A stretch of 32,000 nucleotides of DNA. It comes from Halorhodospira halophila SL1. GTDB lineage: Bacteria > Pseudomonadota > Gammaproteobacteria > Nitrococcales > Halorhodospiraceae. A program made the position numbers and the translations under genes. The stretch's first letter is position 1; every line of letters starts with the position of its first letter. This document shows positions 2,033 through 24,216 of the stretch, in pieces. The notes under the pieces are model-generated. The model did not search any database and had not been told where the DNA came from. It saw only the letters and a program-made list of their open reading frames with translations. Where the stretch lies: assembly GCF_000015585.1 (NCBI RefSeq), contig NC_008789.1, positions 2,100,001 through 2,132,000 of the forward strand, in the 5' to 3' direction.

Positions 2033-2174
2033 GGTCAGCGCTCCTCGTCTTGCGACGGGCGCTGGCGACTTCTGCTGGGGGAGGCCCGACGACGAAACGC
2101 CGCCGCGCCAGAAGGCGGGTCAGACCGACTGTTGCCCCCCAGGCGCGCCGCCCGCACGCCGTTTCATGGGTTGC

Positions 2175-2392
2175 TGTGGGCCGGTCTCCGGGCTCGTGGG
2201 GGGCGCTGGACGCGCCGGTGCGGACCGCCTTCCCACGAGGGCCGCCGGATGACGGCTGTCTCGCAGTGGCCTGTGATCCGCAGGCCCCACCTACCGTTGC
2301 GGGGGCAGCGCCGGCTTCACTGCAGCGAGGCAGCTGGACCGGACTTCCCGTTTAACCCGCCGACGATCCGATCTCGCCGACGGGCACCCACA
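2175..2392 (-). promoter_or_regulatory. Cobalamin (AdoCbl) riboswitch a, leader of the receptor at 1-2032
   Basis: Minus-strand read: tgtgggtgcc...gggttaaacgggaagtccggt...gccggcgctgcccccgcaacggtaggtgggg...GCCACTG (B12 box, plus-strand cagtggc at 2264-2270)...gggaaggcgg...agcccggagaccggcccaca. The 5-prime tgtgggtgcc and 3-prime ggcccaca can close P1. Confidence 0.85.
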
Positions 2393-2404
2393 TCGAAGGG
2401 GCGG

Positions 2405-2434
2405 AGTCTAGGCGGGCCGAACGGGCGGTTGCAA
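2405..2434 (-). promoter_or_regulatory. Putative sigma70-type promoter for riboswitch a (TTGCAA-N18-TAGACT)
   Basis: Minus-strand TTGCAA (2434-2429) and TAGACT (2410-2405) with an 18-nt spacer. The predicted TSS falls a few nt before the P1 5-prime strand. Confidence 0.35.
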
Positions 2435-2512: not shown

Positions 2513-3964
2513 CTAGGTCGACGGCCGCGCAGGTACGCCCAGCGCCTTTAACCAGCCCGGCTCGAGGGCCTGCTCCAGGGTGTCGGCGAGCCGGTCCAGC
2601 TCCGCCTCGATGCGCGCCTGCTCGTCGCCGCCCTCGCCCTCCAGGGCGAACCACTCCACCAGCAGGGCACGGCGGAACGGTCCGCTGTCGAACAGCCGGT
2701 GGAGGTAGCTGCCGAGCACGCGACCGTCATCGGAGCGCGCCACGAAGGGGAAGAGCCCCTCTTGGGCGCCGGTTACGCCGTGGTGGATCTCGTAGCCGGT
2801 GACCGCCACGGGCGCCGGCCACTCGGCGTGGCCGTGCACCTCGGCGAGCTGCTTGGTCGGCGCCAGACGGGTGTGCACCGGCAGCAGACCCAGCCCCGGT
2901 GCGCTGCCGCCGCCCTCGACGCCTTCCGGGTCTTCGATGCCCTCGCCGAGCATCTGCAGCCCGCCGCAGAGGCCGACCACCCGACCCCCATAGCGGCAGT
3001 GGCGATAGAGCGCCTCGGCCATGCCCGACTCGCGCAGCCAGGCCAGATCCGAGAAGACGTGCTTGGACCCGGGCAGGACGATGAGATCGGCGCCGTCGAG
3101 CTCCCGGGGCTGGCGGGCGAAGCGAACGTGCACCCCGGACTCGGCGTCCAGGGCGTCGAGATCGTCGTGGTTGCTCATCCGCGGATAGGCCACCGCCACC
3201 ACTTGCAGGGCGCCGCCGGAGCCGCGCGGCCCGGCCATCCGGTACGGGGCATCCTCCTCGGGCAAGTGCAGATCGGGCACGGCGGGGACGACGCCGATCA
3301 CCGGCACCCCGCCCCGGGCCTCCAGCTGGGCTGGCGCCTCGCCGAGGAGTTCGGGGCTACCGCGGAAACGGTTGATGATCAGCGCCTCCACCCGGCGCCG
3401 GTCGGCGTCGTCGAGCCACTCCAGGGTGCCGAGCAGGGAGGCGAAGACCCCGCCGCGATCGATGTCGCCGACCAGCCAGACCGGCACATCGGCCGCCTCG
3501 GCAAAGCCCATGTTGGCGATATCCCCCTGGCGCAGGTTGGGCTCCGCCGGCGAACCCGCCCCCTCCACCAGCACCACGTCGTAGGCGGCGCACAGGCGCT
3601 GGAAGGACTCGAGCACCGGCGGCAGCAGCGGCTGGCGGGCCTCGCGGAAGGCGCGCGCCTCCAGCCGCCCGGTGACGTGGCCCTGGACCACCACCTGGGC
3701 GGTGCGCTCGGCCTCGGGCTTGAGTAGCACCGGGTTCATGTCGGTGTGCGCCGGCAGCCCAGCAGCCAGGGCCTGAAGCCACTGACCGCGCCCGATCTCG
3801 CCACCGTCGGCGGTGACCGCCGCATTGTTGCTCATGTTCTGCGGCTTGAACGGCGCCACGCGGACGCCGTGGCGGGCGAGCAGCCGGCACAGCCCCGCCA
3901 CCAGCGCCGTCTTGCCGGCGCCGGAGCAGGTGCCCTGGAGCATCAGGGTGCGGGCTCTCACCAC
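2513..3964 (-). CDS. cobQ: Cobyric acid synthase (CobQ/CbiP)
   Basis: 483 aa. N-terminal LMLQGTCSGAGKTALVAGLCRLL...APFKPQNMSNNA, and a C-terminal glutamine amidotransferase-like GLCGGLQMLG. Overlaps cobO by 7 nt. Confidence 0.92.
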   Translation of the reverse strand: MVRARTLMLQGTCSGAGKTALVAGLCRLLARHGVRVAPFKPQNMSNNAAVTADGGEIGRGQWLQALAAGLPAHTDMNPVLLKPEAERTAQVVVQGHVTGRLEARAFREARQPLLPPVLESFQRLCAAYDVVLVEGAGSPAEPNLRQGDIANMGFAEAADVPVWLVGDIDRGGVFASLLGTLEWLDDADRRRVEALIINRFRGSPELLGEAPAQLEARGGVPVIGVVPAVPDLHLPEEDAPYRMAGPRGSGGALQVVAVAYPRMSNHDDLDALDAESGVHVRFARQPRELDGADLIVLPGSKHVFSDLAWLRESGMAEALYRHCRYGGRVVGLCGGLQMLGEGIEDPEGVEGGGSAPGLGLLPVHTRLAPTKQLAEVHGHAEWPAPVAVTGYEIHHGVTGAQEGLFPFVARSDDGRVLGSYLHRLFDSGPFRRALLVEWFALEGEGGDEQARIEAELDRLADTLEQALEPGWLKALGVPARPST

Positions 3965-17298: not shown

Positions 17299-18360
17299 CT
17301 ACCGACTCCGGTGCAGCAGATAGAGGAACAGCGGGACGCCGAGCATCGCCGTGATCACGCCCACCGGCAACTGCTCCGGGGCGATCAGGGTGCGCGCGAA
17401 GACGTCCGCCAGCGCCAACAGCGCGCCGCCGGCCAACGCCGCGGCGGGCAGGATCAGCCGCTGGTCGTTGCCCAGTACCAGGCGGAGCATGTGCGGCACC
17501 ACCAGACCGACAAACCCGATGCTCCCCGCGGTGGTCACCGCCACCGCGGTCAGCACGCTCGCCGCCACGTAGACCCCCCACTCCAGGGGCCTCACGGCCA
17601 CACCGAGGGCCGCCGCCTGGAGCGGCCCGCGGGCGAGGACGTTGAGGCTGCGCCCCAGGGGGACCGCCACCGCCACGGCCACCGCCAGCGCCGCCAGGGC
17701 CAGCCACGGGCTGCGCGCGTAGGCCAGATCCCCCATGAGCCAGTAGAGCATCCCGGGCAGCTGCTCGGTGGGGCCGACGGCGAGCATGAAGGTCACCAGC
17801 GCCCCCCAGCCGGAGGCCACCACCACCCCGGTGAGCAGCAGCCGGGTCGGCGTCCAGCTGCCGGTGCCGTGGGCCAGGCCGAAGACCAGCAGGGTTGAGA
17901 AGAGCGCCCCGACAAAGGCGGCCCCGGAGACCAGCGCCATCCCCAGGCCGGCGAGCATCGCCGCCAGGGCCCCCACGGCGGCACCGCCGGAGAGCCCCAG
18001 CACATAGGGATCGGCGAGCGGATTGCGCAGCAGCACCTGCATCAGCGCCCCGGCCACCGCCAGCAGGCCGCCGACGGCGAAGGCGGCCAGTGCACGGGGG
18101 AGGCGCAGCTCGAGGACCAGGGTGCGGTGCAGGGGCTCCCCGCCACCGGTGAAGACCGCCAGCACCTCCCCCGGGGTCAGCGGCACGCTGCCGATAGCCA
18201 CCGCAGTGGCCACCGCCAGCAGCGCCGCCCCGGCCAGCACGGCCAGCGGCACCAGGAAGCGCACCGGCGACCCGATGCGACTCGGCTGGGCCAAAGCGCC
18301 GCCCTCCTCACTCACCGCGCCGGCGCGCGCCCGCTGATCGGCTGTGCGCTCAACCCCCAT
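17299..18360 (-). CDS. btuC: FecCD/BtuC-family ABC importer permease
   Basis: 353 aa. LRLPRALAAFAVGGLLAVAGALMQVLLRNPLADPYVLGLSGGAAVGA is typical of the family. The start overlaps the btuF stop by 1 nt (TGATG). Confidence 0.85.
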   Translation of the reverse strand: MGVERTADQRARAGAVSEEGGALAQPSRIGSPVRFLVPLAVLAGAALLAVATAVAIGSVPLTPGEVLAVFTGGGEPLHRTLVLELRLPRALAAFAVGGLLAVAGALMQVLLRNPLADPYVLGLSGGAAVGALAAMLAGLGMALVSGAAFVGALFSTLLVFGLAHGTGSWTPTRLLLTGVVVASGWGALVTFMLAVGPTEQLPGMLYWLMGDLAYARSPWLALAALAVAVAVAVPLGRSLNVLARGPLQAAALGVAVRPLEWGVYVAASVLTAVAVTTAGSIGFVGLVVPHMLRLVLGNDQRLILPAAALAGGALLALADVFARTLIAPEQLPVGVITAMLGVPLFLYLLHRSR

Positions 18361-19247
18361 CAGCGATTGCGCCGGGCCTGCTGGAGCTTGTCACACAGCA
18401 CCCGCGTCCCCTCCAGGATGCGTGGCGTCGGGCGCTGGATCGTGGACGGCTCGACAAAAAAGAGGTTGTCCTTGGCGGTGGCCTCGAGGATGTCATAGCG
18501 CCGCCACTCCTCCAGCCACGAGTCATCCGCCTCGCCCATGCCGCCGGCGACGATCGCCTCCGGGTCGGCCGCAAGGATGGACTCGGTGTCCAGCCGCGGG
18601 GTCAGGCTGTCGAGATCACCGAAGACGTTCTCGCCGCCGCAGATGCGGATCGACTCGCTGATGATCTGCTCGTCGTTGACGGTCATCACCGGGTCCGGCC
18701 AGATCTGGTAGAAGACCCGCACCGGATCGCGGTCGGCGTACTCGGCCTCCAGCTCGTCCCGCGCATCGCGGAAGCGGGCGGCCTCGGCGTCGGCCTCGTC
18801 TTCAGTGCCGGCCAGGGTACCCAGACGCTCCAGGGAGGTGGCGATCTCGTCGAGGACCTTCGGATCGCTGCGGTAGAGCGGCAGGCCCAGCGCCTCGATC
18901 CGCTCCAGCTGGCTGCTGGAGTTGCCGCTGGTCCAGCCCACCACCAGATCCGGATCCTTCGCGAGGATCGACTCCATATCGAGCCGGTCGTAGGTGCCGA
19001 CCCGGGGCAGTTCCTCCGCCGCCTCCGGATAATCCGCGTGACTGACCGCGGCCACCACATGGTCCCCGGCGCCGGCGGCGAAGAGCAGTTCCGTCGCCCC
19101 GGGCGAGAGGGCCACAATCCGCTCCGCCGGGGCCTCCAGGCAGACCTCGCGGCCGGCGTCGTCCTCCACGCAGCGTTCACCAGCATGCACCGGCGACCAC
19201 GCCGCCAGCAGCACCAGAAATCCGGCTGCGATGCCCCCTAGCGCGGT
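18360..19247 (-). CDS. btuF: Periplasmic cobalamin-binding protein BtuF (start codon unresolved)
   Basis: RIVALSPGATELLFAAG...DYPEAA...DPDLVVGW...RVFYQIW...ICGGENVF...RPTPRILEG aligns by eye along E. coli BtuF. A signal-peptide-like ARTALGGIAAGFLVLLAAWSPVHA precedes it. The first roughly 290 aa of the 582-aa ORF in the track are a shadow over Uma2 and pduO. Confidence 0.8.
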   Translation of the reverse strand, partial: TALGGIAAGFLVLLAAWSPVHAGERCVEDDAGREVCLEAPAERIVALSPGATELLFAAGAGDHVVAAVSHADYPEAAEELPRVGTYDRLDMESILAKDPDLVVGWTSGNSSSQLERIEALGLPLYRSDPKVLDEIATSLERLGTLAGTEDEADAEAARFRDARDELEAEYADRDPVRVFYQIWPDPVMTVNDEQIISESIRICGGENVFGDLDSLTPRLDTESILAADPEAIVAGGMGEADDSWLEEWRRYDILEATAKDNLFFVEPSTIQRPTPRILEGTRVLCDKLQQARRNR

Positions 19248-19840
19248 TCGGGCCCCGGCGGGGCGTCCTCGAAGACCTCGGCCCCGATGAGCCGGGCCTC
19301 CAGGCTGGCCAGCACCACTTCTTCGTGGGCCTCGTGCGGGTACAACACCCAGTGGCCCTGACCGTCCGCCCGGTAGAGCTCCAGGCTCCCGATCTCCGGG
19401 TCGATGAGGAGATACTCCCGGAGCGAAGGGAGTTTGCGGTAGGCGGCAAACTTGGCACCCCGGTCGTACGCCGCCGTGGAGGGGGACAGCACCTCCACCA
19501 CGAGGCACGGCGCCTCCTTGTGCTGGGACCGCTGATGATCGGCCGGATCGCAGGTCACCAGCACATCCGGGTAGAAGAAGGCGTCGGCAGCCGCCACCCG
19601 CACCTTCATGTCGGCCATGTACGTACGGCAGCCACCCCCGCGCAGCTGCTGGCGCAGCGCGCTGGCCACGTTCAGCGTCACGGTCACGTGGCGGTCCGAG
19701 GCCCCGCCCATGGCGAAGATCTCCCCCGCCACGAACTCGTGCTTGAGGGGTTGCTCCGCCTCCCAGGCGAGGTACGCCTCGGCGGTCATCCCGGCGGGCT
19801 GCGGATCGGCCATGGCTGGAACCTCGGGATACACAGTCAT
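19238..19840 (-). CDS. Uma2-family (DUF820) restriction-endonuclease-fold protein
   Basis: 200 aa. AEAYLAWEAEQPLKHEFVAGEIFAMGGAS..HVTV..N, FFYPDVLVTC and PCLVVEVLSPST...DRGAKFAAYRKLPSLREYLLID match the Uma2 pattern (D...EVxS...K core). The alternative ATG at 19813 has a GAGG SD. Confidence 0.8.
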   Translation of the reverse strand: MTVYPEVPAMADPQPAGMTAEAYLAWEAEQPLKHEFVAGEIFAMGGASDRHVTVTLNVASALRQQLRGGGCRTYMADMKVRVAAADAFFYPDVLVTCDPADHQRSQHKEAPCLVVEVLSPSTAAYDRGAKFAAYRKLPSLREYLLIDPEIGSLELYRADGQGHWVLYPHEAHEEVVLASLEARLIGAEVFEDAPPGPEPR

Positions 19841-19971
19841 CGTCAGTGTAGCAGCGCTGCCCCGCCTTCCCGATCCTCTTCAGCCGGCAGAGCCGAACCA
19901 CAGGCCGGCACACCACACACCCTGCTGTCATGACCCGCTTCCCCCCTGCCGCCGAGAAGCTGATCGTCACG

Positions 19972-20541
19972 CTAAGCGCCCTCATCCGCCGCCCGCTGAC
20001 CCGCCGGACGCCAGAGCACCTCGCCGCCGTTCTCGTAGCGGGAGAGAACCCGGGCAACGACGAAGAGCAGGTCGGAGAGGCGGTTGAGGTAGGCCATAGA
20101 CTCGTCACGCACCGCCTCGTGATGGCTCAGGGCCACCAGCTTGCGCTCGGCCCGGCGACAGACCGCCCGGGCGATATGGCAGTCCGCCGTGGCCTTGCCG
20201 CCACCGGGGAGGATGAACTCCTTGAGGTGCGGCAGGGAATCGTTGAAGTACGCCAGCGCCCCATCCAGCCGTTCCACGGCCTCGAGGGGCAGCGCCGAGT
20301 GACCGGGCACAGCCAACTCGGCGCCCAGGTCGAAGAGCTCGTTCTGGACCTGGGCCAGCACCGGCGCCACGTCTTCTGGCAACTCATGGGCCAGTAAGCG
20401 GCCCATGAAGCTGTTCAGCTCATCCACCTCGCCGAAGGCCTCGACCCGGTGGCTGTCCTTGTCCACCCGCGAACCGTCGCCGAGGCCGGTCCGGCCCTCG
20501 TCCCCGGTGCGGGTGGCGATCTTTGATAGACGGTTTCCCAT
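19972..20541 (-). CDS. pduO: ATP:cob(I)alamin adenosyltransferase, PduO/MMAB type
   Basis: MGNRLSKIATRTGDEGRTGLGDGSRVDKDSHRVEAFGEVDELNSFMG...LPGG...AVCRRAER...YLNRLSDLLFV. The ATG at 20541 has a GGAGGAA SD. Confidence 0.88.
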   Translation of the reverse strand: MGNRLSKIATRTGDEGRTGLGDGSRVDKDSHRVEAFGEVDELNSFMGRLLAHELPEDVAPVLAQVQNELFDLGAELAVPGHSALPLEAVERLDGALAYFNDSLPHLKEFILPGGGKATADCHIARAVCRRAERKLVALSHHEAVRDESMAYLNRLSDLLFVVARVLSRYENGGEVLWRPAGQRAADEGA

Positions 20542-22528: not shown

Positions 22529-22674
22529 GCTTTCCTCCCTTCCGCGCGCCACCCGCACGCGCGTCGGTCCGGTTACACCGCAGGGAGGAAGACAGGGATG
22601 GGGGAAGGGTTCGCGCTTGCGCCCGGCAAACGGTGGCCTGCCCCGGTCTGCCGCCTCCCGCGGCACCTGGGTTC

Positions 22675-22887
22675 CCTCAGGCCGGTCTCCGGGCTCGTGG
22701 GTGGGGTCGGGTGACCCCGGGCGGATCGCCTTCCCGCAGGGCCCGCCGCCGAACGACGACGCCTTGCAGTGGCCTTCTGATCCGCCCCCCACCTACCGTT
22801 GCGGGGGCAGCGCCGGACTCGCCGCTGGGTGCGGCTGTACCGGTCTTCCCGTTTCACCCCGCCGCTGCTCGCGCGGGGCACCTGAGG
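22675..22887 (-). promoter_or_regulatory. Cobalamin (AdoCbl) riboswitch b, leader of btuB
   Basis: Minus-strand read: CCTCAGG...ggggtgaaacgggaagaccggtacagccgcacccagcggcgagtccggcgctgcccccgcaacggtaggtgggg...GCCACTG (plus-strand cagtggc at 22767-22773)...gggaaggcg...agcccggagaccggCCTGAGG. P1 is closed by CCTCAGG/CCTGAGG. Confidence 0.88.
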
Positions 22888-22895
22888 AAGTTGGT

Positions 22896-22924
22896 ACTCT
22901 AGGCAGCTCGCTCACCGGCGTCAA
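22896..22924 (-). promoter_or_regulatory. Putative sigma70-type promoter for riboswitch b/btuB (TTGACG-N17-TAGAGT)
   Basis: Minus-strand TTGACG (22924-22919) and TAGAGT (22901-22896) with a 17-nt spacer. The predicted TSS is about 2 nt before the P1 strand. Confidence 0.45.
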
Positions 22925-23794: not shown

Positions 23795-23823
23795 TTGAAT
23801 CTAATTTGCTCGCCTGCTAACGT
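23795..23823 (+). promoter_or_regulatory. Putative sigma70-type promoter for riboswitch c (TTGAAT-N17-TAACGT) in a locally AT-richer patch
   Basis: Hexamers at 23795-23800 and 23818-23823. The riboswitch P1 begins about 10 nt downstream. Confidence 0.4.
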
Positions 23824-23832
23824 CCGACCCGC

Positions 23833-24060
23833 CAATGGGTGCCCGCCGAGGCCACTCCGCCTCGCGGGTTAAACGGGAAGACCGGTTCAGCCGCACCCAG
23901 CGGCGAGTCCGGCGCTGCCCCCGCAACGGTAGGTGGGTGGCGGCAGACCCCGAGAGCCACTGCGGATCGCACGTCCCCTGGGCGGCATCCGCGGGAAGGC
24001 AGTCTGCCGCCCGGAGGTCTTCTCACCTCCGCCCCACAAGCCCGGAGACCGGCCCATGGC
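23833..24060 (+). promoter_or_regulatory. Cobalamin (AdoCbl) riboswitch c, leader of the receptor-cbiD unit
   Basis: aatgggtgcc...gggttaaacgggaagaccggttcagccgcacccagcggcgagtccggcgctgcccccgcaacggtaggtgggt...GCCACTG (23956-23962)...gggaaggcag...agcccggagaccggcccatgg. Confidence 0.88.
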
Positions 24061-24216
24061 CAACCGGAAGACCGCGGGAGGCGGTGCGCCGGGATCGGTC
24101 TCCAGTGCGCGCGGCATCCTGCCGGGCGTCGCCTCGGCTAGCCGAACCCCGCCCCACTGACTCCCCGCGGTACACGCAACCGCAATCGCGCACGGGCGGT
24201 GCGCAGAGGAGTCAGC

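Follow-up and report, generated by a model that had tools for sequence, protein, structure and literature searches.

Where does btuF begin in Halorhodospira halophila SL1? The gene, which encodes the periplasmic vitamin-B12-binding protein, lies on the minus strand of a 32,000-nucleotide (nt) stretch of DNA (contig NC_008789.1, positions 2,100,001 to 2,132,000; the whole stretch is hereafter the window), downstream of a gene of the Uma2 family. A preliminary description of the window found an apparently intact signal peptide with no canonical start codon ahead of it, and offered as explanations a non-canonical start, termination-reinitiation at the Uma2 stop, or a 5' end damaged by acquisition of Uma2. 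It is concluded here that the 5' end of btuF was probably remodelled by an insertion, and that a replacement TTG or GTG start most likely lies inside the old hydrophobic core. On the sequence, the best-supported start in SL1 would be GTG 19214, the option that had been set aside. This is most likely an ordinary evolutionary account, a curiosity rather than a new mechanism. The features on which the argument turns are these:

18360 to 19214, minus strand: btuF read from the GTG, 284 amino acids (aa), periplasmic vitamin-B12-binding protein (Pfam Peripla_BP_2 and BtuF structures)
19182 to 19214, minus strand: presequence MLLAAWSPVHA, 11 codons, with the predicted signal-peptidase cut VHA↓G between 19182 and 19181 (from the translation)
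19212 to 19214, minus strand: GTG, most likely start of btuF in SL1, with no canonical start in any frame between it and the Uma2 stop
19215 to 19217, minus strand: CTG in SL1; TTG, the likely start, in the other six clade assemblies (junction comparison)
19218 to 19237, minus strand: 20-nt spacer from the Uma2 stop to the TTG/CTG codon, read in the btuF frame as (L)GGIAAGF (seven assemblies)
19230 to 19232, minus strand: ATC, the non-canonical start candidate of the preliminary description (GTC in L003 and L093)
19234 to 19239, minus strand: AGGGGG, a Shine-Dalgarno (SD)-like motif overlapping the Uma2 stop codon (duplex energy scan)
19238 to 19813, minus strand: Uma2-family gene (PD-(D/E)XK fold), 191 aa, stop codon TAG 19240-19238 (PF05685, E 3.8e-38)

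The junction in seven assemblies

Codon-by-codon reading of the minus strand reproduced the btuF-frame codon string reported earlier, and from GTG 19508 to GTG 19214 the frame contains no ATG, GTG or TTG. The former codon (19508-19506) is the only other nearby canonical start in the btuF frame and lies 89 codons upstream, deep within Uma2; the latter (19214-19212) is the first canonical start in the frame past the Uma2 stop (TAG, 19240-19238). Near-starts in the interval are limited to a CTG at 19352-19350 (not 19350-19348, where it had been placed), the ATC at 19232-19230, and a CTG at 19217-19215 that stands directly before the GTG and had been overlooked.

The scarcity of starts has a simple origin. 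Codon positions 2 and 3 of the btuF frame are codon positions 1 and 2 of Uma2, and an NTG in the btuF frame inside Uma2 is possible only at Uma2 TGN codons (Cys or Trp). There are five of these, and they match the in-frame NTGs exactly: CTG at 19766, 19631, 19553 and 19352, and GTG at 19508. Because the frame arrangement limits NTG to five Uma2 Cys/Trp codons, the lack of upstream starts is predicted rather than surprising.

Seven assemblies of the H. halophila clade, representing four lineages, were compared: the window (SL1), L001, L002, L003, L008, L013 and L093. Their sources are a complete genome, a draft isolate, metagenome-assembled genomes (MAGs), and metagenome contigs from ENA and JGI; a metagenome scan with GGNGARCGNTGYGTNGARGAYGAYGC for further junctions gave five loci, two of them relevant. 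In all seven, Uma2 lies between the adenosyltransferase gene ATR and btuF, the btuF 5' end is truncated, the junction has the same length, and an upstream canonical start is absent. Resequencing had been named as a way in which an ATG or GTG might be restored. Since seven independent assemblies share the same junction free of indels, a sequencing or assembly error that conceals such a codon is effectively refuted, its probability being close to nil.

Two adjacent codons vary among the lineages:

SL1 (the window): CTG at 19217, GTG at 19214
L001 and L008: TTG at 19217, GCA at 19214
L002 and L013: TTG at 19217, GCG at 19214
L003 and L093: TTG at 19217, GTG at 19214

A canonical start is thus present at 19217 or 19214 in every lineage: the one that lacks TTG has GTG immediately adjacent, and one has both. 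As TTG is rare among Leu codons (5.9% in the genes of the window), its persistence at this site points to use as a start more than to chance. The start at 19217 or 19214 is also, in five of the seven assemblies, the first canonical start in any frame past the Uma2 stop.

Separation of btuF from ATR

The operon to which the junction belongs also includes the following:

22663 to 22900, minus strand: cobalamin riboswitch heading the btuB-ATR-Uma2-btuFCD operon (Rfam RF00174, 72.8 bits, E 2.5e-16)
19972 to 20541, minus strand: ATR, PduO-type ATP:cob(I)alamin adenosyltransferase gene (PF01923, E 1.9e-56)
17299 to 18360, minus strand: btuC (FecCD permease), its ATG overlapping the btuF TGA by 1 nt (open reading frame list; Pfam FecCD on orthologues)

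The order on the minus strand is riboswitch, TonB-dependent receptor, ATR, Uma2, btuF, btuC, btuD. Relatives outside the clade, with BtuF identities of 65-76%, are represented by L004-L006 and L007 (two lineages) and by H. neutriphila (L098). All have the order btuB-ATR-btuF-btuC-btuD, and L004 shows the same signal-peptidase site (PAHA↓GERC), but they differ from the H. halophila loci in that Uma2 is absent and ATR abuts or overlaps btuF, with a gap of 34 nt, a gap of 8 nt, or a 1-nt overlap. The btuF genes of L004 and L007 begin with a canonical ATG or GTG preceded by a well-placed SD and encode signal peptides of 21-32 aa; the annotated N-terminus of H. neutriphila BtuF is longer than this. 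Comparison with these Uma2-free relatives, in which ATR adjoins btuF, supports the earlier suggestion that the 5' end was damaged by the acquisition of Uma2.

By parsimony, H. halophila would be the lineage in which Uma2 arrived. Together with its upstream region, the gene would have entered between ATR and btuF and stripped the latter of its ribosome-binding site, start codon and charged n-region, leaving of the old signal-peptide coding sequence the 20-nt spacer (GGIAAGF) and 11-12 codons. A Leu or Val codon within the hydrophobic core would have become the new start, TTG in most strains; in SL1 the TTG would have mutated to CTG, with the start now at GTG 19214. The product would carry an uncharged presequence of 11-12 residues (MLLAAWSPVHA or MASLAAWAPVHA) ending at the normal site, VHA↓G. 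Initiation would probably be weak, either by de novo 30S binding with the poorly spaced AGGGGG or by residual coupling to Uma2, which ends 20-23 nt upstream, and a low yield of BtuF may suffice for a B12 scavenging system.

A direct repeat or target duplication flanking Uma2 was also sought. The best candidate pairs ATG GCA GCC GGG on the left with ATC GCA GCC GGA on the right, and local alignment against 500 shuffles gave p values of 0.01-0.58 across strains; the likeness is not significant and was rejected.

A conserved gene behind the altered 5' end

BtuF itself is ordinary by sequence, structure-family match and operon context; the unusual part is its remodelled 5' end. The protein matches Pfam Peripla_BP_2 (PF01497, E 9.5e-24) and the solved structures 5ysc (E 1.4e-47) and E. 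coli 1n2z (E 1.4e-37). Like the BtuCD-F importer (E. coli 1N2Z/1N4A/2QI9; 5YSC), to which its homology is strong (E 1e-37 to 1e-47), it belongs to an operon with a FecCD permease, an ABC ATPase, a cobalamin riboswitch and a TonB-dependent receptor; the permease and ABC_tran partner genes lie directly downstream and the riboswitch at the operon head. It differs from that system in having, as read from its only canonical start, a presequence of 11-12 residues with no charged n-region, whereas close homologues have a median of about 24.

Read from the GTG, BtuF is exactly ABM62687.1 / WP_011814709.1 / UniProt A1WYC5 of H. halophila SL1, and the GenBank and RefSeq annotations already begin at GTG 19214. 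The same H. halophila protein nevertheless carries two database starts (284 aa in WP_011814709.1, 283 aa in WP_242463944.1), and gene callers give lengths of 276, 282, 283, 284 and 285 aa across strains. This spread shows that the btuF start is ambiguous to automated tools, a disagreement that the remodelling described here explains.

An odd 5' end might instead mark loss of function, with btuF in the clade a decaying or non-exported remnant. The presequence does lie far beyond the range of the family, and genes of de novo cobalamin synthesis in the same window (CbiD, CbiJ, CobQ, CobB, CobO) could make salvage dispensable. Against this, the ratio of nonsynonymous to synonymous divergence (dN/dS) in mature btuF is 0.09-0.24 at dS up to 0.40 across the four lineages; the mature 273-codon region is intact in all seven assemblies; the Cys-x9-Cys motif and the signal-peptidase site are retained; and btuC and btuD are intact and overlap-coupled. 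Because btuF is under purifying selection and its partners btuC and btuD are intact, the gene is evidently in use, and a remnant is very improbable.

Composition of the apparent signal peptide

The signal peptide described as intact is so only in part and proves to be a composite of three parts: a reading of the Uma2 tail, the spacer GGIAAGF, and (L)VLLAAWSPVHA. The last of these lies downstream of the first canonical start and ends in PxHA↓GERC, a site common to the full-length signals of the relatives. The R-T-A-L segment is the Uma2 tail read in an alternative frame. The Uma2 C-terminal tail, FEDAPPGPEP, is conserved in orthologues from Thiohalospira and Thioalkalivibrio, and because it is native to the subfamily elsewhere, R-T-A-L and the R/G/P-rich residues before it belong to Uma2 and not to btuF, the btuF-frame 'RGRPAGARTAL' being a by-product of the tail. 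For the same reason the tail was rejected as a relic of a btuF n-region, which its resemblance to 'RGRAAGLRAAL' of L004 (8 of 11 residues, 74% of nt) had suggested; the likeness is coincidental. If btuF was remodelled as proposed, the full-length signal peptide of the preliminary description is probably not translated as such, its n-region being the Uma2 tail in another frame. The case carries the caution that alternative-frame sequence of a GC-rich upstream gene can pass as an n-region.

The middle part is of a different kind. Random frames of the same composition would give an all-apolar 7-mer in only 0.2-0.9% of cases, and since it is so rare by chance GGIAAGF is probably a relic of the ancestral hydrophobic core. 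The spacer is 20 nt long in all seven assemblies and differs at 1-3 sites between lineages, against 20-36% divergence in the ATR-Uma2 spacer; 2 of 20 spacer sites differ, as opposed to 55 of 152, plus gaps, in the neighbouring non-coding DNA. Such conservation fits a role in initiation and would also fit translation of the spacer.

Possible translation from upstream of the TTG or GTG

The spacer thus bears on a second possibility, that translation begins ahead of the TTG/GTG with no canonical codon, either at ATC 19232 or by resumption after the Uma2 stop, and yields a signal peptide of 17-20 residues that includes GGIAAGF. Such initiation has precedent, in that infC has an AUU start. Initiation at AUC and CUG in E. 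coli reaches 0.02-3% of that at AUG (bioRxiv 10.1101/063800), and small amounts of BtuF may do. Inclusion of the spacer restores hydrophobicity to 2.70 (homologue median 2.79), its reading is purely apolar, the spacer is conserved, and in the btuF frame the changes at all four of its variable sites either are synonymous or exchange one hydrophobic residue for another. Statistically, however, four such changes are not distinctive (estimated chance about 0.1), and a role in initiation explains the conservation of the spacer equally well.

The start codon itself is the main difficulty. As in genes with non-canonical starts, a near-cognate codon, ATC, stands in frame upstream of the hydrophobic core, but it is neither conserved nor suitably spaced from an SD: one lineage (L003 and L093) has GTC in its place, and only 1 nt separates it from AGGGGG. 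No other in-frame near-cognate codon occurs between the Uma2 stop and the TTG. An SD-to-start spacing of 1 nt is too close for a start. A start at CTG 19352, the other codon proposed, would add about 45 residues of unconstrained Uma2 alternative-frame sequence. Initiation upstream of the TTG/GTG is accordingly judged distinctly unlikely. Its more specific form, in which GGIAAGF (19237-19218) is still translated through weak ATC/GTC initiation or a btuF-frame restart after Uma2, giving a signal of about 17-20 residues tied to Uma2 translation, is given little credence. Were GGIAAGF translated, the locus would be a natural case of start-codon-independent, or nearly independent, restart in a bacterial operon.

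A start still further upstream would give btuF a long N-terminal extension overlapping Uma2, with the hydrophobic segment as an internal signal. The candidates are GTG 19508 and an ATG in the ATR-Uma2 spacer:

19929 to 19947, minus strand: orphan SD (AGGGGGGAAG) with ATG 19931-19929, within the ATR-Uma2 spacer and in frame with btuF (duplex scan)

In all seven assemblies the btuF frame stays open over the 296 codons upstream, and strong SD-like motifs precede both starts, GTG 19508 following AAGGAGG and 4 nt. By synonymous resampling of the window gene (same protein, window codon usage), the chance of a fully open Uma2 frame is about 0.05. The frame is, however, just as open in Uma2 orthologues lacking a downstream btuF (L009, L012, L015-L017), so its openness is attributed to composition (G+C at third codon positions about 0.9). 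Nor is there protein-level constraint on the alternative frame: most changes in it are radical, 44 of the 62 variable sites of Uma2 falling at its first codon position and causing radical replacements. Substitutions in the ATR-Uma2 spacer, as read from the alignment, are without codon periodicity, and 98-233 Arg/Gly/Pro-rich residues would precede the signal peptide. The open frame was therefore rejected as proof of an extension, which is regarded as highly improbable. The absence of stops in the Uma2 alternative frame is probably compositional, with an excess that composition does not fully explain.

The same frame of Uma2, read from the third codon position, is stop-free in six of six high-GC orthologues and has 3-7 stops in lower-GC homologues. 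The orphan SD forms a duplex of -10.2 kcal/mol, stands 6-8 nt from its ATG and lies 40 nt past the ATR stop. An ATG is found about 229-231 codons upstream of the junction in all seven assemblies, including L002 and L013, in which the spacer is otherwise 36% diverged. The SD and ATG may survive from the region where ancestral btuF was initiated, or may belong to a small upstream open reading frame (ORF).

Initiation signals and possible coupling to Uma2

With the start placed at the TTG or GTG, it can be asked how ribosomes reach it. An SD scan of the junction found no motif better placed than AGGGGG, for which a duplex of -9.3 kcal/mol with an assumed 16S tail (ACCUCCUUA) is predicted and which is invariant in the four lineages scanned. 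As in translationally coupled pairs, btuF follows closely on a gene of the same orientation, within or at the end of which there is an SD-like motif. Unlike such pairs, for which stop-start gaps of -8 to +10 nt are typical (PMC10666635), Uma2 and btuF are separated by 20 nt (to the TTG codon) or 23 nt (to the GTG), outside that range. With reporters of native E. coli and Haloferax gene pairs, coupling falls by 40-80% when the gap is 14 nt and is all but lost from about 20 nt upward (PMC10666635). The termination-reinitiation proposed earlier would thus lie at the limit of what these reporters allow; it is feasible but weak, a possible contributor and not the main mechanism.

The strict version holds that the TTG/GTG is used solely by ribosomes that terminate at TAG 19240 and restart 20-23 nt on. 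It gains from the constancy of the gap (20 nt to the TTG codon in seven of seven, both genes on the same strand), from the position of the start as the first canonical one in any frame in most assemblies, from the want of an independent, well-spaced SD, and from a predicted fold in which AGGGGG pairs with GCCCC in the Uma2 tail and would be unmasked by translation of Uma2. It loses by the reporter distances just cited and by L002 and L013, in which a scanning ribosome would first meet an out-of-frame ATG. The local fold, moreover, is no more stable than that of shuffled sequence (minimum free energy -67.2 kcal/mol, shuffle mean -65.4, z = -0.44), and a conserved RNA structure at the junction is not supported. 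Obligate reinitiation is on balance rather unlikely.

A -1 frameshift fusing Uma2 to BtuF was likewise rejected: inspection of the Uma2 end found no slippery heptamer, and the fusion would be biologically senseless.

Proposed export by a short presequence

The altered gene order, the junction, the pattern of start codons and the purifying selection are shown by the sequences compared. That the TTG or GTG is actually used, and that the short peptide it leaves suffices for Sec export, we infer from sequence, and several observations weigh against it. The start-codon pattern rests on four lineages only. There is no well-spaced SD: AGGGGG stands 16 nt ahead of the TTG codon and 19 nt ahead of the GTG. 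In L002 and L013 the TTG would also face competition from the out-of-frame ATG that precedes it by 4 nt. The presequence has 11-12 aa, as against a median of 24 and a 5th percentile of 14.7 among 114 homologues, and its best 8-mer hydrophobicity is 1.4-1.95, where the family has a median of 2.79 and a 5th percentile of 2.23; with the spacer residues the value rises to 2.70-2.79, the family norm, which hints that the spacer may still matter. Finally, neither MLLAAWSPVHA nor MASLAAWAPVHA contains Lys or Arg, so that the charged n-region expected of a signal peptide is missing. A charge-free first half is also found in about 10% of the annotated presequences of homologues.

The remaining regions of the peptide give a mixed picture. 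The hydrophobic core comprises 5-7 residues (LLAAW or ASLAAWA), and von Heijne's analyses are said to put the core of Sec signals at about 7 or more apolar residues. The c-region is regular, with P-V-H-A↓G supplying a helix breaker as well as small residues at positions -3 and -1, at a site shared with the relatives. Export by a peptide of 11-12 aa is the weakest link in the replacement-start account; it is plausible only at low efficiency, which would perhaps be enough for B12 scavenging. The signs of export to the periplasm are indirect, namely the conserved Cys-x9-Cys motif, the VHA↓G site and purifying selection. A search of the literature for the minimal length of signal peptides gave no directly useful result.

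If the GTG/TTG start is used, the export signal of H. halophila BtuF, at 11-12 residues with an uncharged n-region, would be among the shortest natural bacterial ones and would offer a natural test case for the lower limits of Sec signal peptides. The locus would also show how a gene can recover once its 5' end is lost, a hydrophobic core being rich in Leu and Val codons that can be turned into starts (CTG to TTG, GCG to GTG).

The out-of-frame ATG of L002 (about 2511-2513) and L013 (about 1217-1219; GGATGCTTGG) is created by a T-to-G change that, in the btuF frame, replaces Phe with Cys. The ORF beginning at this ATG has 14 codons, and its TGA overlaps the first codons of mature btuF.

The Uma2 gene and its cobalamin-linked relatives

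The gene that now separates btuF from ATR is a clear member of its family. It matches PF05685 (formerly DUF820) with 131.1 bits against a cut-off of 27 (E 3.8e-38; 158 of 172 model positions) and two solved family members (PDB 9y1l and 6okh), described as a PD-(D/E)XK-fold 'putative restriction endonuclease'. The protein is 100% identical to H. halophila protein P0121, and its dN/dS is 0.10-0.27. From family membership it is a putative, nuclease-like protein.

The window gene resembles other Uma2 proteins in these family-model and structure matches, but its own clade differs from distant members in being embedded in the cobalamin clusters of three genera. Orthologues with at least 68% identity (tail FEDAPPGPEP) all sit in such clusters, in Halorhodospira, Thiohalospira and Thioalkalivibrio. 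The gene order is BtuB-PduO ATR-[Uma2]-BtuFCD in H. halophila, CobN-ExbB-DUF2149-CobO-[Uma2]-CobB-CbiL-CbiD in Thiohalospira and Thioalkalivibrio, and CobD, CobQ-like GATase, [Uma2] in L009, a related MAG. Except in L009, Uma2 lies directly downstream of a corrinoid adenosyltransferase gene of the CobO or PduO type. The B12-linked loci are as follows:

Window: 19238-19813, minus strand
L009: 3001-3579
L012: 3001-3582
L014: about 2578-3159
L015-L017: 6001 to about 6600

Among more distant Uma2 loci, a B12 gene occurs within 6 kb in 2 of 75, and a homologue of 67% identity adjoins JetB/MksE-family genes instead. This context argues that the Uma2 gene at the btuF junction is not a stray selfish gene. 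A full-text literature search for Uma2 together with cobalamin found no relevant link and no experimental data on nuclease activity or another function. For B12 biology, the association of this Uma2 clade with cobalamin genes across three genera may be of more consequence than the start of btuF.

These Uma2 genes also share a short upstream element:

19845 to 19853, minus strand: TGcTACACT, extended -10-like box upstream of Uma2 (conserved in five aligned clade sequences)

The box is kept in five of five aligned clade sequences while the remaining spacer diverges. A -10-like box (TGCTACAAT, CTACTAT, CTATGAT or TGATAGACT) precedes each B12-linked Uma2, 30-45 nt upstream in L009 and L012-L017, often in the extended form TGnTACAAT or TGnTACACT. 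The box at 19845-19853 may be a putative internal promoter that would express Uma2, and btuFCD in SL1, independently of the riboswitch. A simple scan of 19000-20200 for sigma-70 promoters and terminators found neither, and gave no full promoter in the region upstream of Uma2.

Divergence between SL1 and L002 is mosaic across this region (window 19238-19971 against L002 1759-2495). Uma2 has a dS of 0.098, with its last 60 nt identical; btuF has a dS of 0.257, and the spacer between ATR and Uma2 contains gaps and has diverged by 36%. The pattern suggests recombination or gene conversion of Uma2 between strains.

Cobalamin riboswitches number three in the window, at 2162-2406 (minus strand), 22663-22900 (minus strand) and 23820-24071 (plus strand). 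They head the cobQ-side operon, the btuB-ATR-Uma2-btuFCD operon, and a unit comprising a second TonB-dependent receptor and the cbiD operon. Besides CobB, CobO, CobQ, CbiJ and CbiD, the window encodes a CysG-like gene.

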